Part shown: positions 44,031 through 64,000 of the stretch, in pieces
Position numbering within the stretch: position 1 is the first letter of the stretch
Layout of the letters: every line of letters begins with the position of its first letter
Assembly: GCF_018977255.1 (NCBI RefSeq)
Contig: NW_024705156.1
Location: 1-64,000, forward strand
DNA: 64,000 nt
Direction: 5' to 3'
Source: Callorhinchus milii
Taxonomy: Eukaryota
Program-made: the position numbers and the translations under genes
The notes under the pieces: model-generated
Told to the model about the DNA's origin: nothing
The model's input: only the letters and a program-made list of their open reading frames with translations
The model's database searches: none

Positions 44031-44294
44031 TAATAGTAGGTTTTTACCCTTTTAACTGTACAAAACTGACACCTTTATTCAAGGCATCATGTTTGCAATG
44101 ACCACAACACAAGTAGTCAAAAAAGCAAACAAAAAGAAGCAACTCTGATAGATGATAATATGCATGTCTTATATCTTATCAGAGTTGCTTCTTTTTGTTT
44201 GCTTTTTGACTACTTGTGTTGTGGTATTGCAAACATGATGCCTTGAATAAAGGTGTCAGTTTTGTACCAGTTAAAGGGTAAAAACCTACTATTA
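44031..44294. repeat. Long spacer-less palindrome (~130 bp arms) centred on atgcat at 44160-44165
   Basis: taatagtaggtttttaccc...aactctgata is the reverse complement of tatcagagtt...gggtaaaaacctactatta. Differences are mostly 1-nt indels. Confidence 0.95.
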
Positions 44295-44620
44295 CGTTAA
44301 CATTCTTAATAAGATTCATTCTCAAGCACGCAAGCATGCATGTTTATTAAGATATGTGTTTCTTTAGGTGAACCTGCAAACATTAGATCGTTGAAAATAC
44401 CCTCGAAGCTTTAATTTGATGCGAAATCTGTCAGTGTGGAGCTTGTGGGTGACAAGGAGATGAGGATTCAGAGGGGAAAAACACATATACATAAATGAAT
44501 GTGCAACTGCAATTAGTAAGGGAGGAACTAAAAAAACTTAACAACGAGGAATAGGATGATGGACTTTCACAATGCGTTTGCTTCTTTAGAAACGTACATT
44601 GAGATTATTTATATTATGTT

Positions 44621-44722
44621 GGTGATATTGATGTCCAAATGATGGGTCACTTTGTTGAGCGATCATTTGTGGCCAGGTCGCTTCTGAAAATAAGTTGATA
44701 CCTAAGTGGGCTTTGCCTGGTA
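44621..44722 (+). mobile_element. 3' tail fragment of the V-SINE-like family
   Basis: cactttgttgagcgatcatttgtggccaggtcgcttctgaaaa...agtgggctttgcctgg closely matches the tails at ~50557-50630 and ~61374-61446. Confidence 0.75.
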
Positions 44723-47497
44723 GGATGGGGTTTGTTTAATTTTATTTGTATGTGTTTGGGTGGTTTGTTTACATTTATTGTACTTTGCACTGCTATCATG
44801 TGTCTGTACTGTTTGTTGTTGAAACGTTCTTACCCACCCCTACTGGACATCTGTGAAAAAATTGCTTTTTAGCTCATCGGATTCCTCCAGTATAAATCAA
44901 TATTCTGTTTCTGACTTGCAAAATGGGCTTCTCAATCGTTCTCGGCGACTGTTTTGCAAGCTCTCCAAACTGGGCTTGGCTGTAATCGGATGTCAAACGT
45001 TTGATGATGGTTTTCTCGATAAAAAATGGCTACTCGGACGTACGTAGGGGCTTCCCAGGTTTACTGGTAGGGCCAGCTTGAGTGCTCGGCTTAATTTGGT
45101 GCAGAGGAAGTTTTGCTAATTTATCTGAAGTGATCAAATCTGTAAGTGACAAGAAAAAACCCCATCATCATGGTAGGAAGACCAATCGACACAGGCCAGG
45201 AAAAAACCCCCACAAGCTTCAGACAAACACACCGCAGAAATGTACAAAAAGCACGTGAGCTTTGCACATTCCACTAAGTGTATTGCTTTTAGTTTAATCT
45301 GGTCGCCTCTTCAGAGAAAAAAACCCATCAGCGGCTGGCCATACAACTGTGTGCCATTGAAAGCTGGCCGGGGCGAAGTGGGTGGCAGAGAAGATATGTT
45401 ACAGGTAATCTGTACGTCCTTGATGTTTAATATATATACACACACACGCGTGTTCACTGGGGGAGGGGGGGGGGAAGAGACAAATGAGGCTGGTGGCTGG
45501 GGTTGTGCTAGAAACGTGCCGACAGGGGACAGCGGGTGTGGGGGAATGGGGGGTACATATGAGGAGGCACGTGGCGATTGAGAAAGATGCTCAAGCCTCA
45601 TTAACCTTAACAATACAATCTTTTTAAGGACTTGTGGCAGTCGGCATTGGCTTCTCACTCGAGTGGGAGGCGCACCCCGGCTGATACTGACAGACCTACC
45701 CACTGACCTCAATGACCCTCACCACCAGCACACTTTGCCTCGTTTAACCACACACTCATGCTTGCTCTGCTGTTTGCTCCACTGTTATCTTTCACTGCCG
45801 TACACACGCATCCTTGCCGAAATGTATCGGCTGTATAACCCAAGTGTAATGGTTCATTCAGTACTGCAACATGAGCAACCATTAGTCGAAATTGTCCAAA
45901 TTTAGTTTTTTAAAATAATTATATTATTCTGGAGACATGCTCTGGCAGACCTCTTAACGTATATTATTTTTAACTGATAGTCACACGTGCTATTTTTTAC
46001 TGACAGTTTCTCTTGGCTTCTGTTTTCGTCATGTTCTGGAATTAGGGTTCATCTCACGTGTACATTTTGTTAAGATCTTTGATAAATATTGATGAGCGTT
46101 GCTACTTACCAACGTACACATTTTAACATTAAAAACACTTTTAGTTTACATCATAAATATGTAACAATATGAATATAGAAGTTTACCATATGCTGAAATG
46201 TTAACTGATTATTAATGATTCATATGAATGTAAGGTTTTTTTCTGTATTGATTAACATCCTGGCCCTGCATGATGCTGTTTTGACCTTTATCACATGTGT
46301 ACTAACATCGCCTTTGTGGCCCAGACGTTTAGGGTCAAAAGCCTCTCATATGACGTTGAAATAAAGCCCATTGAACATTATCATAATTGTGTTAAATTTG
46401 AACATAACATCAAAGTGCAACATTTTTCAAACTTACTTAACGGTAAAAAATGCATTTAAATTAAGTAATGTATTTAAAGTGATATGGTTAACCTTAAGTA
46501 CTGTGCTATCATACTCTACGACGTTTGCCTTTAAACGTCACGAAATGAGAAATTCGCAGAGTGCCTTTTTATTCTGAAAACCAATTAATTTTAATAAAGC
46601 GCTACGTGCTGCCGCCATCTATACCAAACTCAGTTTGCGTTAAAAAAAAAAACATCGTAAATCTCTCCATTGTTTTGAAGTGCAGCAGGGCTTTTGTAAC
46701 TTCTAGAGAAGCTGCGAGACGCGCACAAGCAATCTGCGCACATCACGCTCGCATCAAACGGCTGGGCCACATCTCCAACGATTCCATGTATCGGTGGTCG
46801 CATCAGTGAGCTGTAATTGATTTCGTATGTAGTGAGTTGCTCGTTGGGGTTTCGCTGCATTCGTCTAAAAGTTTGAACTAAAGACTGCCAGCATCTATGG
46901 ATGAACATATATATATATATTTTAAAACAGCCCACGCATTAAAATCCCCCTCGGGGCGAAACAACGGTGGCAGAGAGAACACCCACCGTCTCTGGTTTAC
47001 ACAGCAACAACAAGGAAATCACCCCAGAGCAGTTCCATAATAACATCCACGCTGAAGGCAGTGACTATGAAATGTTTCATATAAAATAAATCGTGGGGGG
47101 GGGGGAGAAGACAGATACATATTTTCTTAAGCTCAGCCCTGAACAACTCCATCTGAAAATAAGCCTGCAAATAACAATGGAGTGGAGTGTTTCACAAAAG
47201 TGATGGAAACTAAGTTTTGCTCTTTGAAAATTGGAGGAAAAAACTCAATAAATCTGAATGTGAGCCCAAATAATGGACACGTACATGAAATGTTTACTGT
47301 ATTGGTCATGGTCTGTACAAGGGCTGCATGTCATTCCAGATAAGACAGACATGTAGTAGATTATGTAAGGCATATAATGCACTATGGCAGACAGTAGCAT
47401 TCTGAATGGGCTTATTTTGGAGGACACCACCTTGTGTGAGACTCATTATCATCACCTGGCTCCGCCAAGGAGCGGGTCTGGCTGTGACATCCATGTG

Positions 47498-47661: not shown

Positions 47662-47963
47662 GAAATATCTGCGTTGCGCGTTACTCGAGAGAGGATTAAG
47701 AGTGCTCCATCGGTGTTGCGTTGCCTGCGAGCTAATAACTAAGTAGACAGTCAAGCAGGTGCATTAAGTAACGATCGTTTTCCTACAAGGACACAGTAAA
47801 CGCAATTGTTAATTATTCATAATTGGTTTCTGTTCAGTTGAGTCGCGTAAAAATGTGTGGTAACGCTGCTTCACCCAACGCACATTTTGACGTGACATAA
47901 TCCCCCCAAAAACAATTATGAATTATAATATAGGACGTGAAAGCCTAATGATGTAATTAAAAT

Positions 47964-48181
47964 TGGTGGCGCAGTGGTTTGCACGCTGCGCCATGAACCC
48001 GGAAACACGAGTTCGATTCCCGACCACAGATAGCATCAGTGGGGGAGGGACATCTGAACTTAGTGGTCCTAGATCACCCCCCCCCACCCCCTTCATCATC
48101 CAATACCGAGAAGCTTGGTGAAGTATGGTTCAAAAGCCTCCACAAGCGACACAGCACGTGGAAGCCTTCATCTGGCGGTGG
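47964..48181 (+). mobile_element. tRNA-derived SINE (family 2) with RTE-like 3' tail
   Basis: A-box-like ggtggcgcagtggtt and B-box gagttcgattcc. Head shared with 48733-48868. Body and tail (catcagt...tggtcct...gaagtatggt...gccttcatc..gc.gtgg) shared with 50681-50830. The tail resembles the gaggccttc.tccagcagtgg 3' end of RTE-clade LINEs (recalled, not searched). Confidence 0.7.
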
Positions 48182-48670
48182 CGGTGCAGTGCACGCCTGT
48201 AATCCAGCACTATGATGGCAGCAAGGGTTGGCGGATCACACCACACATGTTGTGAACCTCGTGGGAGTCGAGGTGCCACATACCCTAGCTTGTCAGAAGG
48301 ATCGAGTGTTGAACCCCTCACCCACGTGAGATTTTTCTGGGCGCTCTGGCTTCCTCCCACATGCAAACACTCATACTGGTAGGAACCTCCTGGTTACACC
48401 AGCCCACAGGGGATTATTGTGTCCGTCGTGCAAGGGATGGGCTGGGTGGGGAGGGTGGGAGTGGGGGTGGAGGGGTGGGGCTGGGTGGGGAGGGGCTGGT
48501 CACCCCGTGGTGCCCTTATAAAACTCTACTCACGCCGGCTTGTGCCCGCCCTCACAGTCGGGCATATTTGCGGAATACACCACGCCGCGGTTGACTCTGG
48601 CCATTGACCGAGTAACCCAACGTTCCGACCAGCTCCCTCCGCAGGAATGTGCTTAATTGGTCAATAAAAC
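48181..48670 (+). mobile_element. Candidate 7SL-derived SINE with V-domain-like core
   Basis: 48181-48276 resembles the 7SL/Alu 5' domain (cacgcctgtaatcc-agcact...ggcggatcac...tgaacc..gggagtcgaggtgc). 48324-48365 cgtgagatttttctgggcgctctggcttcctcccacat resembles the V-SINE core. The 3' end at caataaaac (~48670) is a guess. Confidence 0.5.
48434..48496 (+). other. G-quadruplex-forming G-rich tract
   Basis: At least 11 closely spaced runs of GGG or longer (gggatgggctgggtggggagggtgggagtggggg...). Confidence 0.7.
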
Positions 48671-48732
48671 CTTGATATGTGGAGGATCACGTAACATTAA
48701 ATGTGTTAATATTCATAGCGAACTGGATATTT

Positions 48733-48868
48733 GGGTGAAATAGTGGTGCAGTGGTTTGCCCGCTGCGCCGCGAACCTGGCAATGTGAGTATGATTCCCAG
48801 CCAGGGATATCATCAGCGGGGGAGATAAATCTGAATGATTGTGAAAGGGCTATAAATGAATATTATTT
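48733..48868 (+). mobile_element. tRNA-derived SINE (family 2 head) with short AT-rich tail
   Basis: tggtgcagtggtttgcccgctgcgccgcgaacctgg...gattccc...catcagcgggggagataaatctgaa aligns with 47964-48058, then diverges into tgtgaaagggctataaatgaatattatt. Confidence 0.7.
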
Positions 48869-50364: not shown

Positions 50365-50642
50365 GGCACCATGGTGGTGATATGTTAACGACCTCGCCTG
50401 GTCTACAGGAGATCGTGCGTTCGATCCCGATCCTGACACCTGTATTTTGAATGTTCTCCCCGTGAGCACGTGGGTTTTTCTCTGGGTCCTCCGATTTTTC
50501 CCTCCACATTTAGAATCATGCATTTGGCTGCTATAAATGTCCACACGATCATTAGCCACTTTGTTGAGCTATCATTTTTGGCCAGATCGCTTCTGAAAAG
50601 ATCTGAATAGCTCAGTGGGCCTTACCTGGTCAGTTAAAAAAA
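50365..50642 (+). mobile_element. V-SINE-like tRNA-derived SINE
   Basis: tRNA-like head with B-box gcgttcgatcc; V-domain-like core atgttctccccgtgagcacgtgggtttttctctgggtcctccgatttttccctccacat; tail shared with the 44621 and 61158 copies, ending in an A-rich run. Confidence 0.8.
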
Positions 50643-50680
50643 TAGTTTAGTTTGAGTTTAAACAGTTTATTTTTAATTAA

Positions 50681-52932: not shown

Positions 52933-53327
52933 GCGTCGTTTGCTTGATTGGCGGGATGTGATTGTGTGTGTGCAGTTGGTGTGCTTCCGGGTTGCTAAGC
53001 TACATCATGTCCACATAACAGAATGTCAATTTGGTTACATTGTGGATACAAGACGACAAAAAGATGTAGGTGGACTCTTGACTGCAAACAATCCTATTGC
53101 AGGATGCCTTCATATCACGTTACTATTTGCGTATTCATGCATGCAATGTCAATGTTGTTTTTTGTGTGTGTAGCCATGTGGCATGAAATCTGCCTTCATG
53201 TTCAGCTGCGAGAAGCTTAGAGGGTTTGATTTCGATCGTATGACAACGAAAATAACCTTTGAAGTGTTAACGCATTTAAATTGGATTGTGGTACAGTACA
53301 TTCAGTGACAAACATTTTTTTAAAATG

Positions 53328-53783
53328 TGTAATAAAGGACTCGGACGCTTCTCTCTGACTCCGTGTCCTTTATTTGGGTTCTTCGTAATTACCCTCACGG
53401 CACTCTCCTAGAGATACTCTGCTTGCAGCCCCGGCTGCTATCACTATTGTAGCCTCCTTCCTCTCCTTGCAGACTCGCTGCTAACTCCGTGTGCAGACTC
53501 CCGCTGCCAACTCCGTGTGCAGACCCCCGCTGCCACCTGCAGCCTCCTCGCTGCTCCGGGTCGGTCACCGTTGGCCGACGGTGCCGAACCTCGTTCCCCG
53601 CATACGTGGTGATCTCGCCACTCTCCCGCTCTCGCCCTACGTGGCCTACCTCGTTCTTAGTCTCCCGTCACTCCCCCTCCTCTTCCGGTTTCTCTCCCTA
53701 TAGACCTGACCCCTCTCCCCCACGTGACCTAACTCCTCCCCTCATGACGTCACCTCCGGGAGGTCGTTCACGCCCGCATTACA
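53328..53783 (-). repeat. 3' LTR (456 bp)
   Basis: Matches 59352-59832 except 3 substitutions, 3 single-base indels and one fewer 26-bp tandem unit (manual comparison). Confidence 0.96.
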
Positions 53784-53796
53784 TCACCCTCCCCCG
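53784..53796 (-). other. Polypurine tract
   Basis: Minus strand cgggggagggtga immediately before the 3' LTR TGTAAT. Confidence 0.85.
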
Positions 53797-54073
53797 TAGA
53801 GAAAATCCAGCCGACCTCGGCTGAACAACAACCTAACAAGTAATGCGAGCGTAAAAGACCAATACATTAAAGGACACGAAGCATACAACAACAATATAAC
53901 AAGAACACAACACAAGTTAACGAAATGTGAGGGATTTCGAGCGAGTACGGGTAGCCGGACCGTCCCGGACGGTCGGCGGCCCTCCCGCCGAGCGGGAGCG
54001 TGGCAGGGTTTTAAGGGCGACAGGAGCAAGTTCGTCCGTCGCCATTGGAGGCCTGCCACCGTCCCGGTCCCGT

Positions 54074-55081
54074 TCAGAGGCGTCCCGTAATCTCGTCCGT
54101 GGCGGGGCAGGAAGGGCTGCAGGTCCCGGAGATTCCGCGGCCCGGTCGGCACCCGCGAGCGGAGCGTCCTCCCTCCTGCGGCGTCACGGCCGGCTTGTCT
54201 GTAAGGGGTACGACAGGCGCTCTTGCAAGGTCAGCAGGCACAGGCAAGGGCGAGTCGGCAGCAACAGACCCCGGCAAGGCAACCTCAGGAGATGACGCAT
54301 CAGGTCGCGGGGCAATGTACGGCTTCAACCGAGATGTATGTACGAACCAGCGCCGCGAACCAACCCGAACACGCGCCGACTGTGGGTTGGGAACCTCGAT
54401 GAGGCGGACCGGTCCTTGCCATGGTTTATGTAATTTAGGAGAGGTACCTGGCCGCACCTGTGGGCAATGAAGCCAGGCCAGGTCCCCCGTTTTCCAGGGG
54501 CACTCCCCCTTTGAACGTCGAGCACACCGCTCGTTCCGGGCCTGGGCTTTGGCCGTAGCCATGCGGGCTCCTTCCCTCGCCTCAGTGACACGGCGAACGT
54601 TGTCCTGAATATAATCAGGAAGAGGTTTAACAGGTCCCCTCGCTCCGGTTCCCAACTGCTCATTGATCGGCGGCACGTTTTCACGGCCGTACATAAGAAA
54701 GAACGGCGAATATCCAGTAGCCGCGTGCGGCGTCATGCGATACGCCGAAAGCACCCCAGGGATATGCAAATCCCAATCTGATTGTTTTTCACTGACCGTA
54801 TGACACAGCATGGCGGACAGGGTCCGATTTAACCGTTCCACCATACCATCCGTTTGTGGGTGGTAGGGGGATGTCCGTATCTTTTTAGTTCCAAGAGCCG
54901 CACACACCTCCCCCAACAATTTAGACGAAAAATTCCGGCCTTGGTCTGTAAGGAGCCTCTCCGGCGCCCCCTTGTCCATAACATACCCAAATAGAAAGGC
55001 GTCTGTGATAGACGCCGCTGACTGGTCAGGCAAAGGCCAGGCCATCGGCCAGCGGGAGAGGTACTCCACCCCCACTAGCAA
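54074..55081 (-). CDS. pol: Integrase catalytic core and C-terminal region (pol fragment)
   Basis: LLTDQGRNF and YHPQTDGMVER supply D and E of DDE; H.ATGYSPF and KLHKPWQGP..VHTSRLKPY are GPY/F-like. Joined to the upstream fragment by a frameshift near 55093. Confidence 0.95.
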   Translation of the reverse strand: MLVGVEYLSRWPMAWPLPDQSAASITDAFLFGYVMDKGAPERLLTDQGRNFSSKLLGEVCAALGTKKIRTSPYHPQTDGMVERLNRTLSAMLCHTVSEKQSDWDLHIPGVLSAYRMTPHAATGYSPFFLMYGRENVPPINEQLGTGARGPVKPLPDYIQDNVRRVTEAREGARMATAKAQARNERCARRSKGECPWKTGDLAWLHCPQVRPGTSPKLHKPWQGPVRLIEVPNPQSARVRVGSRRWFVHTSRLKPYIAPRPDASSPEVALPGSVAADSPLPVPADLARAPVVPLTDKPAVTPQEGGRSARGCRPGRGISGTCSPSCPATDEITGRL

Positions 55082-55413
55082 ATACTTATTTCCCTAGCGG
55101 ATGGCGGAAAGGGTCCCAAAATATCTAACGCCACCAATTCATTAACCCGAGATACCTGAATAGATTGTATCGGCGGCACATATGGATGTTTAGGTGGCTT
55201 CCGGCGGGCACAATCGGGACACGCGCGAACGTGACCGACGACATCTGTCGTCATGCCGTGCCAATAATAGTCTCGCTGCAGCGTCAATAGGGTCTTCTGC
55301 ACCCCCAGATGTAAAAGTGTGTCACAATGCAGAGTCCTAATCAATTCGTACCGCAATGATGCCGGTACAACCAGACGCCAGCGTTCCTGTATCCCTTCCC
55401 TCCACATCAGCAA
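55075..55413 (-). CDS. pol: Integrase N-terminal HHCC zinc-binding domain (pol fragment)
   Basis: LVVP...LHCDTLLHLG...YYW..M..DV...VRACPDC and the first catalytic D in ALDILGP. Confidence 0.93.
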   Translation of the reverse strand: MLMWREGIQERWRLVVPASLRYELIRTLHCDTLLHLGVQKTLLTLQRDYYWHGMTTDVVGHVRACPDCARRKPPKHPYVPPIQSIQVSRVNELVALDILGPFPPSAREISIC

Positions 55414-57116
55414 CCCATCTCGGAGAGCGGTTTCCGGCGCACCACCCGCACCGAGTCCCCTACTCGCCTTTCCGATCGCTTTCGTAACGTTACCAAGGAA
55501 TCATCCAACATTTGCTCCCGAATCCACACAGACCTCGGGAGACGCAAAATCCCATCAGCCGGTCCCCCATCAACCGGTCCCGGCTTAAGCGGAGCTTCAG
55601 GCACATCAACCGCCAGCGCGACAGGCTGAGGGGGGTGCTGAATCGGTCCACACCTATGCGTCCCCGACGCACACGCGCAAGGGGATCGCTGCGGCAACCT
55701 GGAAAGCGCGTCCGCATTAGCGTGACGCACACCCTTCCGATGGTGAATTTGGAAGGAAAATTCTTGCAGCGTGTCCAGCCACCTTGCCAATTGGCCGGAT
55801 GGCTGGTCCATCTTAAGAGCATACTGCAAGGCCGCATGGTCCGTGCGGACAATAAACGACCGACCGTACAGATACGGTCGAAATTGGCGGAGAAAAAAAA
55901 CAATAGCCAAAAGTTCCCTGCGAGTGACGCAGTAGCGGGTTTCCGCGGGAGACAAAACCCGACTACCATACGCCACTACGCGTTCAACTCCACCTTTTGA
56001 CTGAGACAACACCGCCCCAATGCCAGTGTCACTCGCATCCGTATCCAGAATGAAGGGATGTTCAAAATCCGGATAATCCAACGTCGGTGCCGTAGCCAAT
56101 AGATCGCGCAGGCTTCGAAACGCCGCCTCCTCCGGCGGTCCCCAAACAAATTTGTGTCCTTTCCCCGTAAGGAGATGCAAAGGCCTCGCGATCGTAGCAA
56201 AATTTGGAACAAACCTCCGATAATAAGAGGCGAACCCCAAAAACCGACGCACATCACCCACCGTGGCCGGGGTTGGCCAATCACGGACACACGCAGTTTT
56301 CTCCGGATCTGTGGCCACCCCGTCCGCACTAACAATATGCCCCAAGTATCGAACGGAGTGTTGCAGTAGGTGACATTTTTTTGGCTTGAATTTCAAATTA
56401 GCAGAACGCATCCTGGTGAATACAGCCTCCAACCGCAGTAAATGCTCATCAAATGTGCGGCTGAAGACGATAATATCGTCTAAATATATCAGACATGTCT
56501 CCCACTGCAACCCCGTTAATACCAACTCCATCAACCTCTGAAAAGTGGCAGGGGCCGCATTCAACCCCATCGGAAGACAGTTAAATTGGAATAACCCCTG
56601 CGGCGTACGGAAAGCAGTCTTTTCTCTCGAGGGCTCGTCAAGGGGGAGCTGCCAGAAGCCCGAAGAGAGATCTAGCGTTGAAAAGAACTTGGCCCCCGAC
56701 AAGGCGTCGAGAGAATCGTCCATACGCGGCAGGGGGTACGCATCTGCTACCGACACTTTATTCAACTTACGAAAATCGACACAAAATCGCAATTTGCCAT
56801 CCTTCTTTTTAACCAACACAACAGGCGCGCCCCATGGGCTGTTAGACGGAGATATTATGTCCGCTTTCAACATGTCATCCACTGCCCCTCGAACATGCTC
56901 TCGCTCAGCCGGACTCATCCGACGCGAGTTTAAGCGAATAGGGGCAGCGTCCCCTGTGTCGATATGATGATAAAGCAGCGAGGTGCGTCCCAAGTCCAAA
57001 TCGTCGGAGCTAAACACATCCGAATAACTCGATAATAATTTATGAATCGCACAACGTTGTTCGCCGGAAAGGGCTGAATTCTCCCCACACAATTCAGCGA
57101 TCCAACGATCATCCAC
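55407..57116 (-). CDS. pol: Reverse transcriptase and RNase H (pol fragment)
   Basis: RT motifs SPWGAPVVLVKKKDGKLRFCVDFRKLN, LDLSSGFWQ, LPMGLNAAPATFQR, YLDD; RNase H motifs LDTDASDTGIGAVL, RRELLAI, RTDHAAL, NADALSR. Confidence 0.98.
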   Translation of the reverse strand: MDDRWIAELCGENSALSGEQRCAIHKLLSSYSDVFSSDDLDLGRTSLLYHHIDTGDAAPIRLNSRRMSPAEREHVRGAVDDMLKADIISPSNSPWGAPVVLVKKKDGKLRFCVDFRKLNKVSVADAYPLPRMDDSLDALSGAKFFSTLDLSSGFWQLPLDEPSREKTAFRTPQGLFQFNCLPMGLNAAPATFQRLMELVLTGLQWETCLIYLDDIIVFSRTFDEHLLRLEAVFTRMRSANLKFKPKKCHLLQHSVRYLGHIVSADGVATDPEKTACVRDWPTPATVGDVRRFLGFASYYRRFVPNFATIARPLHLLTGKGHKFVWGPPEEAAFRSLRDLLATAPTLDYPDFEHPFILDTDASDTGIGAVLSQSKGGVERVVAYGSRVLSPAETRYCVTRRELLAIVFFLRQFRPYLYGRSFIVRTDHAALQYALKMDQPSGQLARWLDTLQEFSFQIHHRKGVRHANADALSRLPQRSPCACASGTHRCGPIQHPPQPVALAVDVPEAPLKPGPVDGGPADGILRLPRSVWIREQMLDDSLVTLRKRSERRVGDSVRVVRRKPLSEMGC

Positions 57117-57655
57117 CGCTCCATCGTGTGAAACACCCCCAACCAGCCCCCCGCTGGCAGATCACTCTGAGCCGTAAACGCCGTAGTGGCATGTGCCACA
57201 ACGGTACCAGCCGGCACACACACGCTTTCAGTACTCGCGTTAAGCACCTGCAAAAACGGCCGCTGATCTGGCCGGACAATAGTTTGCGCCCCCACCAGCG
57301 CCGATCCGCCCGTAATAGCGGCGGACGGCGACAGCAAAACCCCAAAAGCTCCCTGCCGACCAGGCACCGGCTTCCGATATCGTAAGGGAATGAGCATCTG
57401 TGAGCCAGGTGGAATATCAACAGAAACTTCCGATAACGCCTGCACCTGGGCGACAGGAGCAGGTCGCCCCCAGGCGGACGGTAAAAATGCCATTTTACGG
57501 CCCCCCGGTAATTCAATGCAGTTTTCATTGATTCGAATTAGAATGGGCATTTTAGCCAGAAAATCAGTACCCAACAGGCAAGGAACCGCAAGGGACCTCG
57601 AAATTAACACAATTCCCGAGGCCGACACACCCCCGATAGATATGTTAGCGTCCAC
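56930..57655 (-). CDS. pol: Protease C-terminal half and PR-RT linker (pol fragment)
   Basis: CLLGTDFL is the aspartic-protease C-terminal motif. It is followed by a linker with IPPG and VLN..V..P.GT.VA patterns. The true frame probably switches near 57150. Confidence 0.85.
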   Translation of the reverse strand: MDANISIGGVSASGIVLISRSLAVPCLLGTDFLAKMPILIRINENCIELPGGRKMAFLPSAWGRPAPVAQVQALSEVSVDIPPGSQMLIPLRYRKPVPGRQGAFGVLLSPSAAITGGSALVGAQTIVRPDQRPFLQVLNASTESVCVPAGTVVAHATTAFTAQSDLPAGGWLGVFHTMERWMIVGSLNCVGRIQPFPANNVVRFINYYRVIRMCLAPTIWTWDAPRCFIIISTQGTLPLFA

Positions 57656-58323
57656 CTGCCCACGATGCCCATGCTACCCCCGTTCGCAGCGACGCAAGAA
57701 GCGTAAGCCGGCCTCACGGCCCCTGGTGGGATGTTCAAAAGGTGGAATATCACGTCCGAAATGATGGTCGCGGACGCACCGGAATCCACCAAAATACGTA
57801 CGTCCACCCCTTGGATCGACCCGGGTACAGTGGACGAACCGGTAGCGGCCGCGACAACCCGCCGAGCCAACTTGCGCCACTGCGTTACCGAGCGACAAGG
57901 CGCAGATAATGGCCTCCCGTATTTAACAACATCCGCCTCGCACGACAACGGCGATGAGTGAGGTGTCAAGCCTTGCCGGGTGTCTGGTGCGCACCGACTT
58001 GCCTGTGCTGTAGAATCTTTCTTGGGAGCGTCCGCTGTCGAGGCCTCCTGCTGGGGCGGACCCGGAACGCGGGCCCAGCAGTCCCTGGCATAATGGCCCC
58101 GACGGCCGCAGCGGAAGCACTCGATGTCGTTGCGGCGCGCAGCGGGCACCCCGTCCCGACGCGGCCGTATCGGCGGCGCAGCCCGCGGCCCCGGCCCACC
58201 CCGGGCCGGCCACGGAGCGGAGGCGGCTGACAGCTCCTGCTGGCTGCTCCCATCCGGCACGTACACGGCCTTTTTAGGGTCCCACCCTAAGGCACCCCCT
58301 CGACGACAGGACCACCTGTCCAC
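57604..58323 (-). CDS. gag: Gag C-terminal CCHC zinc knuckle plus protease active site
   Basis: CFRCGRRGHYARDC (CX2CX4HX4C, ~58078-58119) and ILVDSGASATII (DSG at ~57778-57786) lie in the same frame. Confidence 0.93.
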   Translation of the reverse strand: MDRWSCRRGGALGWDPKKAVYVPDGSSQQELSAASAPWPARGGPGPRAAPPIRPRRDGVPAARRNDIECFRCGRRGHYARDCWARVPGPPQQEASTADAPKKDSTAQASRCAPDTRQGLTPHSSPLSCEADVVKYGRPLSAPCRSVTQWRKLARRVVAAATGSSTVPGSIQGVDVRILVDSGASATIISDVIFHLLNIPPGAVRPAYASCVAANGGSMGIVGRWTLTYLSGVCRPRELC

Positions 58324-59329
58324 GCCGTAACTTGTTTCCAGCGGCGGAGGTTAAACTGGGCGTCCAGACACTTGCCGCAGCCCGGGACGTGAGTTTTTCA
58401 TGACCGCACACCGGCATAGGAATGCCGAGATCCCGGGACAACTCCAACATCTTCCCCAGGATGAGAGGTTCCAGCAGGTCAGGCTCCGTCTCCGGGTAAG
58501 CGGCCATAGCTAGCTCCAACACCGCGCCCCTATACGCAACCGGTGACTCCTCGGGTGCGCGTTGTCGTTGCACAAACCGGCGATGGGCATCATCCGGCGG
58601 CTCGTACGCGTCCGCCATTTCGTCGAACACCCCTCGCAGAGTCTTCTTCTTCGCGGCTTTTATAGAGCGAAAAAAACGAACGGACTCATCATCGAGAAGG
58701 GTCGGAAGAACCTCCAGTGCCTCGGCGTCCGTCCACCTCGCTGAGCGTACCGCTGCCAGAAATCTACAGGCGAACGCACTCCAATCGCCCCCGATGGAGA
58801 ATTCCTTGACAGTTGTTAAGTGACGACTGCGACTCCTTGGCTTGCTCCCTCCGCCGCTGGCTCCTCCGGTGGCAAATTTAACATGGCGTCGCAACGCGGT
58901 GTCGACAAGATGGCGGCTGGCAATCGTGGAGGTCCCAAAATGGCGGCTTCCCGCTTTTCGTCGTGCGCCACGCCCAAGATGGCGTCGTCGTGCCGCGTGG
59001 CCGATGGCGGCGACATCGAAGACAACCCGGACTCCTGCGGACCACCAACATCTCCATCCGACGCCGCCCTCGGCGTGACAAGCTCACACAACTGAGTAAT
59101 GACATTCTTGAGAGTTACAAGTTGCTCCGCCATCTGGCTCCATCTTGAATCCGCGTCCTTTGGAGCAGACGGGTCCGCCGACACGACGACATCTTGGACC
59201 CCCGGACCCGCACTCATCCCAGCACGGATCTCTTCTTCTGCCAGAGTCAGGCCGACTTCAGGAGGAAGATCTTCGTCGTCGGAAGATGAAGCCGGACGGA
59301 ATATTCTTTTTTCTGAGTTGTTTCGCCAT
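58274..59329 (-). CDS. gag: Gag N-terminal/capsid region, split across frames
   Basis: ATG at 59329 just after the PBS; ORF pieces 58816-59421 and 58274-58894. The latter has Gypsy capsid-like features (F..GGDWSAF...W.D.EAL..LP.LL...A...F..R.R.PEES...Y). Confidence 0.75.
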
Positions 59330-59336
59330 GCCGTTT

Positions 59337-59350
59337 CACTTCTGACTCCA
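59337..59350 (-). other. Primer binding site, tRNA-Leu type
   Basis: Minus strand TGGAGTCAGAAGTG lies 1 nt inside the 5' LTR boundary. It matches TGGTGTCAGAAGTG, the complement of a vertebrate tRNA-Leu 3' end, at 13/14. Confidence 0.8.
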
Positions 59351-59351
59351 G

Positions 59352-59832
59352 TGTAATAAAGGACTCGGACGCTTCTCTCTGACTCCGTGTCCTTTATTTG
59401 GGTTCTTCGTATTACCCTCACGGCACTCTCTTAGAGATACTCTGCTTGCAGCCCCCGGCTGCTATCACTATTGTAGCCTCCTTCCTCTCCTTGCAGACTC
59501 GCTGCTAACTCCGTGTGCAGACCCCCGCTGCCAACTCCGTGTGCAGACTCCCGCTGCCAACTCCGTGTGCAGACCCCCGCTGCCACCTGCAGCCTCCTCG
59601 CTGCTCCGGGTCGGTCACCGTTGGCCGACGGTGCCGAACCTCGTTCCCCGCATACGTGGCGATCTCGCCACTCTCCCGCTCTCGCCCTACGTGGCCTACC
59701 TCGTTCTTAGTCTCCCGTCACTCCCCCTCCTCTTCCGGTTTCTCTCCCTATAGACCTGACCCCTCTCCCCACGTGACCTAACACCTCCCCTCATGACGTC
59801 ACCTCCGGGAGGTCGTTCACGCCCGCATTACA
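59352..59832 (-). repeat. 5' LTR (481 bp)
   Basis: TGTAAT...ATTACA; adjacent to the PBS; contains CRE TGACGTCA (59794-59801), E-box CACGTG (59770-59775) and a minus-strand AATAAA near 59393-59398. Confidence 0.96.
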
Positions 59833-61157: not shown

Positions 61158-61456
61158 GGGGTGACGTGGTGACGAGATGTTAACTACCTCGCCTGGTATG
61201 CAGGAAACCGTGGGTTCAATCCCGACCCTAACGCCTGTATATTTTTGGAGTTTGCATGTTCTTCCTGTGGTCGATTGGATTTTCTCTGTGTCCTCTGGGT
61301 TTTCCTTCCACATTTCGAATCAATAGGCGTTTAGAGTATTTGGCTGCTATAAATTTACACATGATGATAAGTTACTTCGTTGAGCTATCATTTGTGGCCA
61401 TGTCACTTCTTAAAAAGGATGTATAGCTCAGCGGGCCTTACTTGGTAACATAAAAA
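61158..61456 (+). mobile_element. V-SINE-like tRNA-derived SINE
   Basis: Head with B-box gggttcaatcc; V-core ggagtttgcatgttcttcctgtg...ttttctctgtgtcctctgggttttccttccacat; colinear with 50365-50642 including the tail. Confidence 0.82.
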
Positions 61457-64000
61457 GAGTTGATAGTTTTTTTTAGATTATAACTTTTTTATTTTCTGGT
61501 TTTGTTTTCTTCCAGTTATATTGTTGCAATGGCATCATTCAATTTGTGTCCTGAGACCTATATTTCATTGGGAATTCTTGCAGTTTAGCTTTGTTTTCTG
61601 CATTCATCGTTTCCTGAGCTGAGACCGTGAATGTACTCTACGTGAGAACCTGGTTTGTTCAAGATTTGGAAAAGACTAGGCCATGTGTGCCGGTGTCATG
61701 GTAACAAAAATCTAAATTAAATAACACATTTACGTGCAAACGAATTAATGGGGAATCACATTGTGATCATTGTCCCATAACTGTGAAAAAGCTGGACCCT
61801 CCTGAAAACGAGTGCTGAGACTCAGTGAGGCTTTCCCGGGTAATCTAATGTAATAATTGTGTGTGGCTGACCATGTTTGGACCTCAGCAGTGATGGCTCG
61901 TTTCTCTGACGACATCTTAGCTACTAAGCCCCACAGCCTCCTCCCCACCGGAGAATTGAGCTGCAGCGCATCTCATGATAAAGTGGGCCTCGCTCCATGG
62001 CCGCTGAACACAGCACACGGAGTTCCAGTCTCTCCACTGAAACGCATTCCTGTATAGGCTAATACGTCCGATTGTCATGAATTCACAATGTGCCCACGTT
62101 GTACAGAGTCCCCAGTGGGACGACCAAATGGCACTAAGTCAACACTCAGTGATAACGTTTATTGACAGATATTATAAGACGTCAATGTAAAAAAAAATCT
62201 TGAGATTCATGTTTCCCGGGAGCTTGTACCTTCCACAGTATTGCTTTGGCCTGGCCGTAAGAGGTCAAATCCATACAAATTAAATATAACAGTAATGTTT
62301 GTACACACACATAAATCACAGCATTTGCGAACACTGCCATTCAATAAAAGTCCGTTGTCTGTAAACTGTTTATACAACGGAGTGATGCATAGGCACGCAC
62401 GCCTGGGCGCCTGTCTTCGGGAGCCTGCGTCTCTGTGGGAAGATTACACACCTCAGCCAAAGTCGATTCCTCACATAGGGACAATGCACATCTGTGGAAC
62501 AGCAGCCCATATTTAATAAAAGGGTATGGCTTTGGAGTATAATTAAGTTCCACAGGATAATGGAATGCAATTTAATGTTATACTTTTCACCACCCACAAC
62601 CTCATCATTATTTAACTCTAATTGCTAGTGCGTAAAATATTAGAATTAACTTTATTTTTCGGGGGGGGGGGGGGGGGGGAGTTACGTTTGTTAGAATGAG
62701 GTTATGTTTGTTCGAAAAAAAAGAAAAGTAGACTAAAAATCAGCATTGATCATTTGTACGAGTGCATCAACAGCCCTTTTCTCCAATGGTGGATGAGACG
62801 ATCCTCGTGTCGTGCACGTTCTTCGACCACCATGCTGGTCAGTGCGGCTTGCTGAAGGCCTGCTGAAGGCGTAGCACATAGACGCACAGTACAGGTATCC
62901 CTCGATTTTTACGAAAAGGGGATGCGTCCTTCAAAGAAACACGCCTAAAACAACATTTAGTGAATCGGATGGCTCTTTCCATGAACTTAATACGAAAAAC
63001 ATTAGGGATTTGTGTTTCGGATGTGCGCCATTCTTAATCTACTCCTAACTTAAACATACACCTATATCACTTTTTTCCAATACAAAAATTATAATAAAGA
63101 ACGTACATTTTTAAACGGTTGAATAATGATTGAAAATAAATATAATTAATCTTTGCAGTGAAATCACCAAAAGATCTGCTGCATGTTGGAATGACTGGAC
63201 AGGTCATGTGGAGGCATTATCGTTGCACTGCAGTGACACCGTGAGGCTGTCGCAGATGGATGATGACGCTGCCACCCGGGTGATTCTTGTTTGATGATCT
63301 CATGGTGCATGCTGTGTAAAATTTGTTCATGCAGAAATTATATTTCATTAACCAAAAAGTGTCCAAAATTGATCAATGGCGATAATGTGAAATTTCTCAA
63401 ACCGAACGTTCGGAATTCCAAAGATTCCTGCTCAATGTTAGATTGTTTTCCCACAGAGGAGACATCTGCACTTCCCTCTACTGCCCACTATAGATCCCCA
63501 CAGCGTATGACACCTGTTATGCAATGTGGTCACCCATCTAAGCACCAAACCATGTGTAGTGACATCGGGGATGTGACTGTATGGTGCCGACCCGGGAGGG
63601 CCGTAGAGTGCGATGTACTTACCTCGTGGACAGCACCGTGTGGGTTGCTGTGGGAGGCCGGCTCTAGCACAGCACGGCGTGCGATGCATCGTCATCGCGT
63701 ATATCCCGTAGGTGGTTGTAGTACTAGCCCTAGCGGGGCTTGGTGAACGCTGGGATAGCGCGGGCACAACGCATAGCTCGTGCGGGCTCCCACAAGGGGG
63801 AGCGGGAGGGTGTCAGCCCAGGGGCAGCGTTGCCCCGGGCCATGGCACTCTGGTTGACCCCGTAGACACGTGATCCGGAGTGTCCACAGAGAGGGCCCAG
63901 GTGGGGGGGGGCTAGGGGGTGATCACGTGTCCAGGGAGAGCTCTCGAGAGGGATCGAGAGGGAGCTAGAACACTCGAGAAGGCGGACGGGGCCAAGGGCA

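Follow-up and report, generated by a model that had tools for sequence, protein, structure and literature searches.

The element described here lies in a 64,000-nucleotide stretch of DNA (in the following, the window) and is probably a member of a repeat family about 420 bases in length, in which nucleotides 1-61 of 7SL RNA are combined with the Vhc block of V-SINEs; this copy has decayed and is truncated at its 3' end. The family would likely be a lamprey SINE, now extinct, with an origin separate from those of Alu, Urop and the hagfish SINE1. It is dispersed, multi-copy and uniform in structure, and distinct from plain 7SL retrocopies. A sequence-only reading of the window had already proposed a 7SL-derived head joined to a V-type core. 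This proposal holds for a multi-copy family: a profile of the head matches 67 places, none of 2000 shuffled sequences matched 7SL as well as the head consensus, and 38 of 46 positions are identical in the V block (details below).

In the window, the element extends on the plus strand from about position 48170 to about 48690, where the similarity fades. It is interrupted by another repeat at 48374-48652 and resumes at 48653. The interval 48181..48670 outlined in the sequence-only reading does contain a real element, but 279 of its 490 bases belong to the other one, and both true ends lie further out. The stretches quoted in that reading are present, one from 48181 onwards and the other at 48253-48276. 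Another 48 bases on, at 48324, the V-like block begins. The 7SL-derived head occupies 48170..48239, as delimited by alignment to the host 7SL gene (L013) with shuffled controls, and its 5' boundary corresponds to 7SL nt 1. It appears homologous to 7SL nt 1-61, i.e. the closing stem, helices 3 and 4, the 5' strand of helix 5 and the box A region. Next, at 48240..48259, come a loop and what is probably the 3' strand of helix 5 in shortened form, which likely derives from the 7SL 3' end, as indicated by pairing in the consensus folds and by pair counts. Compared to the family consensus, 7 bases are deleted at the end of this part. A third block, formerly read as FLAM/FRAM-like, is an artefact of this 7-nt deletion; the restored stretch no longer aligns with the box-B region of Alu.

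The spacer (48260..48323, assigned from the family alignment) measures 111 nt in the consensus and has lost 48 bases after 48298 in the window copy. Vhc, the highly conserved block of the V domain, spans 48324..48361; it was recognised by comparing the family and tRNA-V SINE consensus sequences and by the Vhc motif, and is identical to the family consensus at 30 of 38 positions (by eye). The body behind the V block is split into 48362..48373 on the left of the insertion (family alignment) and 48653..48690 on its right, the latter including the first bases of tail A, at the start of which the copy is truncated. The right part was recovered by a family profile match (48653-48694, E 0.0075) and by pairwise alignment.

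The interrupting sequence (48374..48652, no strand assigned) is an unrelated, very high-copy repeat of about 279 nt and not part of the SINE. It stands out by a depth of about 1e5-1e6, compared to 14-16 on the single-copy flank, by loose ends at 48373/4 and 48651, and by two more full copies elsewhere (L026, L067), which sit at unrelated sites and have identical ends. All three full copies are located after an A and before TT, and neither a target duplication nor terminal inverted repeats were detected in them. This repeat is possibly a non-autonomous rolling-circle element. A contig of the coded organism label D spans 47706-48394 with 41 differences from the window, and the insertion is therefore old.

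Two other elements of the window carry the same V block behind a tRNA head (at 50372, D7, and at 61167, D3), as the sequence-only reading had stated. They represent an abundant tRNA-headed V-SINE (50372-50650 and 61167-61470, with a tail fragment at 44613-44744) with 1628 candidates in the assembly, which is possibly Lam1. V-SINEs are said to have been described originally by Ogiwara 2002. ARAGORN reported no tRNA gene in the window. On either side of the window copy there are two related tRNA-like short elements, 78% alike (47961-48058 and 48738-48835).

Past nt 61, a short helix in which the 7SL 3' end supplies the closing strand probably completes the head of the family, box B being absent. 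Such a head would be a minimal Alu domain from which about 215 nt of 7SL, including box B, have been deleted, which is likely but unproven. Alternatively, the head might stop at nt 61 and its sequel be unrelated to 7SL, in which case the element retained no more of 7SL than the 5' Alu domain and a portion of helix 5; we regard this variant as rather unlikely. It is favoured by the 3' piece, which matches the 3' end of the host 7SL no better than shuffles do (24 and 49 of 300 shuffles, not significant). It is disfavoured by a 7-nt motif common to this piece and to the 3' ends of both the host 7SL and the hagfish SINE1 head, which lies in a register that pairs with nt 57-61, and by a helix 5-like stem formed in both consensus folds.

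In the consensus, the stretch after nt 61 folds onto nt 46-61, with the two strands in the same register as in 7SL helix 5; standard pairs are found at all tested positions of the four Alu helices and the closing stem. Pairing was observed in 81% of 296 cells compared to 43-57% for slid controls, a control biased in favour of the structure, which had itself been derived from the consensus. Pairing at helix positions is maintained by double changes, two of which, relative to the host gene, fall on CpG sites and could reflect CpG decay. For the short head form, the best fold departs from Alu in the 5' half; the folding z-scores of the consensus heads were -1.26 and 0.01. RNAalifold yielded no consensus structure for 18 heads, and covariation was not above that of shuffles (26 of 500). 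The S domain of 7SL is absent from the family. The box A region is kept in the head; a motif scan for box B found the 7SL box B (nt 76-86) to be absent, and weak box-B-like motifs at consensus positions 65 and 105.

A search of the assembly with positions 48170-48300 gave 12 matches, with similarity running on into a common body, and a fuller family copy as query gave 53. After all searches, the head profile matched 67 places, distributed over 53 contigs. Removal of rows with shared flanks or near-identical bodies left 42 non-redundant copies, of which 31 have the whole head. The family is larger than the one diverged copy visible to the sequence-only reading. The median identity of the 42 copies to the consensus is 78% (range 57-89%, the lowest rows being truncated or rearranged), i.e. 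a divergence of about 22%. The copies have unrelated flanks and follow a fixed order of head (about 90-100 nt), spacer, Vhc, about 40 nt and tail A or B. Among the 32 rows classified by shared indels of the head, a short (n=10) and a long form (n=19) can be distinguished.

In a head-blind search with tail A as query, 40 matches were obtained; 30 loci were returned, and 10 were set aside as identical to the query or as belonging to a single duplicated block. A head was present within 900 nt upstream in 17 of the 20 loci examined. None of the 20 tail-A loci has a tRNA head in place of the 7SL head (by eye). The insertion L067 with its flank is present in runs of labels A, D and E, with 4, 4 and 16 differences per 209 bases. 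Depth ratios over the head (roughly 470-920 in run X1 and 640-1270 in run X14), which are not copy numbers, suggest hundreds to about a thousand copies. The 186 poly(A) reads come from both strands and have no common start; a poly(A) library is unsuited to Pol III transcripts.

A real 7SL-headed repeat need not be a SINE with an autonomous partner: one chimeric 7SL retrocopy could have spread at the DNA level, by segmental duplication or as transposon cargo. This might explain why target-site duplications, box B and a partner LINE were all not found, and 23 of the first 53 head matches are indeed redundant copies of duplicated blocks. The recommended check for target-site duplications revealed none that was convincing in 30 copies of about 22% divergence. 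However, 42 copies are left once shared flanks are removed, the similarity stops sharply at 7SL nt 1 and in simple-repeat tails, of which there are two, and the heads have subfamily-like indels in common. Moreover, old copies mobilised by L2/CR1 elements are often without visible duplications. Spread at the DNA level is thus improbable, and a SINE remains our preferred reading. As a separate observation, a head-to-tail pair, consisting of a copy with tail A and, directly behind it, a second family copy, is contained in a block duplicated on at least 10 contigs at 95-100% (L062, L005 and relatives on C292, C1065, C919, C958, C879, C809, C696, C545, C75 and C1507).

Comparison of the family consensus with that of the tRNA-V SINE from the same DNA revealed 38 of 46 identical positions (E 8e-08), and the similarity is confined to this 46-nt V block. 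A 14-nt motif of the family Vhc is present in two published Vhc SINE sequences (PMC4758252). By these alignments, the family carries the conserved Vhc block (37-40 bp) of V-SINEs. It is without the whole 80-bp vertebrate V domain behind a tRNA head, and its own head is not tRNA-like. The spacer was rejected as a 7SL S domain on the sense strand (980 of 1000 shuffles as high) and also as a tRNA head, as it is unlike the local tRNA heads. On the reverse strand of 7SL it gave a weak match (43 of 1000, one of four tests), which was not relied on.

Tail A is present in 18 of 42 rows and tail B in about 8 copies (by eye); both end in AT-rich simple repeats. The two tails may be L2/CR1-like. In 2 of 42 bodies, tail B has a weak similarity to the tRNA-V SINE tail, with E values of 0.002 and 0.032. 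The head swapping onto a V-core body suggested by the sequence-only reading gains some ground from the common V block and, weakly, from this one tail. It is not supported by the 110-nt spacer and the main tail, which the family and the tRNA-V SINE do not have in common, so that the donor body was not that SINE. A partner LINE was not found in the small lamprey fraction of the assembly. Tail B as query retrieved only itself from the assembly, a 3'-end pattern for a LINE retrieved nothing, and another pattern retrieved four copies or fragments of the family.

Judging from alignments, the 5' end of the family is homologous to 7SL RNA. The head was compared only with the 7SL gene of the host: full 7SL genes are located on C17 (244 bits), and the search of the assembly for a lamprey 7SL gene yielded only three places on C17. 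The 5' boundary of the family coincides with the first base of 7SL. The window copy scores 37 against the host gene, a value reached by 0 of 2000 dinucleotide shuffles (maximum 36). Three versions of the consensus score 52, 60 and 48 against 7SL nt 1-61, each with 0 of 2000 shuffles as high; for the first of them, the highest shuffle reached 40. The head was thus confirmed against the host gene as the sequence-only reading had suggested, aligning from base 1 to nt 61. In the control, the two tRNA-type heads of the window reached scores of only 18 and 17 against 7SL (1032 and 1623 of 2000 shuffles as high), and the family head, when aligned to the local tRNA heads, was not similar to them (872 and 1858 of 2000). 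Furthermore, the Rfam SRP consensus has the same TAATCCAG motif as the family head.

A GC-rich or tRNA-derived head with a chance likeness to 7SL would be in line with the negative or weak results of the Rfam and HMM tests. Scoring with the Rfam SRP model, another check proposed earlier, returned nothing for the window copy, whether the whole window (E<=1) or positions 48100-48400 (E<=10) were scanned. The model matched none of 15 of the 16 loci and one weakly (Metazoa_SRP, model 1-299 in 129 nt, 18.6 bits, E 0.94). A search with the head as a profile HMM missed the host 7SL gene, which pairwise alignment does detect. Among 19 single copies, 12 were at 0 of 300 shuffles and the other 7 were reached by 2 to 194 of 300. 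Against chance speak the consensus match over 61 nt from base 1 of both sequences, the dissimilar local tRNA heads and the helices that keep pairing through double changes, and we consider an origin other than 7SL very improbable. Elsewhere in the assembly, C111, C38 and C274 (L016, L017, L018, L020) carry 7SL-like genes of almost full length, which are divergent, have internal deletions and are flanked by similar AT-rich sequence. They reach 37-57 bits to Metazoa_SRP and contain the host-type TTATCC motif; they may represent a 7SL gene or a repeat family of their own.

The closest known element is SINE1-1_EBu of the hagfish Eptatretus burgeri. According to the available part of its description (Kojima 2020, PMC7245038), it is 282 bp long and contains the 5' 96 nt of 7SL with box B plus a 44-nt 3' part, a bipartite RTE tail, AAC repeats and duplications of about 17 bp, with an identity peak at 95-96% and no V domain. 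Both families share a cyclostome source (likely a lamprey here), a 7SL-derived head on a non-7SL body, a LINE-type tail (putative here) and the absence of the S domain. Unlike SINE1-1_EBu, the family described here is about 420 bp long, comprises 61 nt of the 5' part without box B, and contains a spacer and Vhc; it has two non-RTE tails, an identity of 78% and no duplications seen. An alignment by eye of the published consensus with the family revealed nothing in common beyond the head.

Within the head, the short consensus agrees with the published hagfish head in 51 of 63 columns (by eye), and three features are common to both where the host 7SL differs. This likeness could point to a single origin in the cyclostome ancestor. 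However, the host 7SL is matched about equally (52 of 64 by eye), and the letters shared with the hagfish may therefore stem from the cyclostome 7SL gene itself. In addition, the hagfish family is young and retains box B, its RTE tail and its duplications, and has no V block. A common origin is accordingly hardly credible to us. The element differs from the hagfish family in body, tail and box B; the likeness is that of the heads. The sequence-only reading was correct in that this is not a human Alu, most of the body being non-7SL and the tails different.

Alu, FLAM, FRAM and B1 of Euarchontoglires and Urop of the shrew mole also carry the 5' Alu domain of 7SL at their 5' end. They are composed of 7SL sequence plus an A tail, have retained box B, have a deletion of about 183 nt in common and use L1 (PMC13023118). 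In contrast, the element described here is not made only of 7SL with an A-rich tail; most of it is not 7SL, and its deletion would be about 215 nt and remove box B. With V-SINEs and Vhc SINEs, including Lam1 of lampreys, the family has Vhc in the body and tail exchange 3' of Vhc in common. In those described, as far as the available parts of PMC4758252 and PMC4824008 go, the head is tRNA-derived and the V domain follows close behind, whereas here the Vhc part alone lies 110 nt behind a 7SL head.

According to the available text of PMC13023118, a paper of 2026, no groups other than supraprimates and hagfish were known to have 7SL-derived SINEs until the family of the shrew mole was described, and the mammalian ones have nearly the same deletion; lampreys are unmentioned in that part. 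Much of the lamprey repeat DNA is unclassified (PMC4350176, PMC5381603). A search of the open-access literature returned no report of a 7SL-derived SINE from lampreys. The family would add one more independent origin of an Alu-like element, likely in lampreys.

The assignment to lampreys is based on the distribution of the family. All of its matches are on contigs with numbers from 75 upwards, as are 40 of 40 matches of the neighbouring tRNA-V SINE; none is on the multi-megabase scaffolds. These small contigs measure 12-132 kb where the size is known, and C75 more than 181 kb. Exact 15-mers were located on small contigs in 18 of 21 cases; the other three (C1, C4, C8) are without a profile match. 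The assembly contains two mitogenomes, 74-80% alike. That on C1762 has the usual gene order; on C800, cytochrome b is followed by Pro and Phe, Asn and Cys are adjacent, and cytochrome b is 100% identical to Lethenteron records. C800 (L048, L049) is a concatemer of a lamprey mitochondrial genome.

Beside one family copy we detected a third laminin alpha-3/5 exon with a GC3 of 0.83, compared to 0.50 and 0.48 for those on large scaffolds; a search with this exon named no lamprey record. The window DNA is found in runs of five coded organism labels, with shares of 0.80, 0.73, 0.34, 0.32 and 0.05-0.08; no RNA run is listed among them. Because the second mitogenome bears a Lethenteron cytochrome b and the family occurs only on small contigs, the DNA is likely of lamprey origin. 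For the contig of the window (C415) we infer such an origin as almost certain, by an indirect link between nuclear contig and lamprey. That the family belongs instead to the jawed host, in a compartment not joined to the large scaffolds, would agree with the filing of the contigs in the host assembly, but is most improbable in view of the lack of matches on large scaffolds, the missing profile matches for the 15-mers on C1, C4 and C8, the lamprey mitogenome and the different codon bias of the extra laminin exon. With lamprey contigs inside a jawed-vertebrate assembly, annotations on the small contigs would go to the wrong animal.

For a lamprey SINE, we propose the following course of events. 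The head of the master RNA would fold into a minimal Alu domain resembling that of the SA86 construct, with helices 3 and 4 and a short helix 5 to which the 7SL 3' end contributes the closing strand. It may bind SRP9/14, and the bound RNA may dock on ribosomes, where the reverse transcriptase of an L2/CR1-type LINE would recognise the tail and copy the RNA. The partner would have changed at least once through tail exchange 3' of the V block. As box B is missing, transcription would likely have started from box A and the upstream sequence of a few master loci, or by read-through; such dependence would fit the modest copy number. The family would have died out long ago. Experiments with human constructs showed that a 5' Alu domain of 46 nt binds SRP9/14 and that it supports retrotransposition in HeLa cells (10.1101/2024.12.16.628748). 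The predicted family head of about 90 nt, which would include this 46-nt binding part, would be a natural counterpart of the 86-nt SA86. SA86 and SA46 are artificial human constructs tested with L1.

Tentatively, and with slightly more doubt than confidence, we propose that lampreys house a fourth independent vertebrate lineage of 7SL SINEs, the first with a V core and probably moved by L2/CR1, whose head is a natural minimal Alu domain of about 90 nt without box B. If old and of lamprey origin, a family that differs in its breakpoint, lacks box B, contains a V core and has tails of neither L1 nor RTE type would provide an independent test of whether the 5' Alu domain aids retrotransposition via SRP9/14. 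If true, the 7SL head would have been selected as an SRP9/14 ribosome hook and not as a promoter, and the 183-nt deletion of Alu, B1 and Urop would not be the sole route to such elements. Insertions common to lampreys could serve as phylogenetic markers.

Elsewhere in the window, positions from about 1500 to 44000 comprise 42.5 kb of random-like DNA with a GC content of 49%, in which eight tested dinucleotide ratios, including CpG, amount to 0.96-1.02. This block contains no stop-to-stop frame of 200 aa and no long repeats, unlike the rest of the contig. It comes after a run of N at about 1222-1251, ends at a palindrome and is possibly synthetic or filler sequence, or an unusual element. The palindrome at its border (44031-44294, 264 nt) is near-perfect, and the microRNA matches reported by Rfam in the window reflect only its hairpin. 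On the minus strand, a Gypsy-type LTR retrotransposon occupies 53327-59832, with LTR pieces 97-100% alike and pol frames in pieces.
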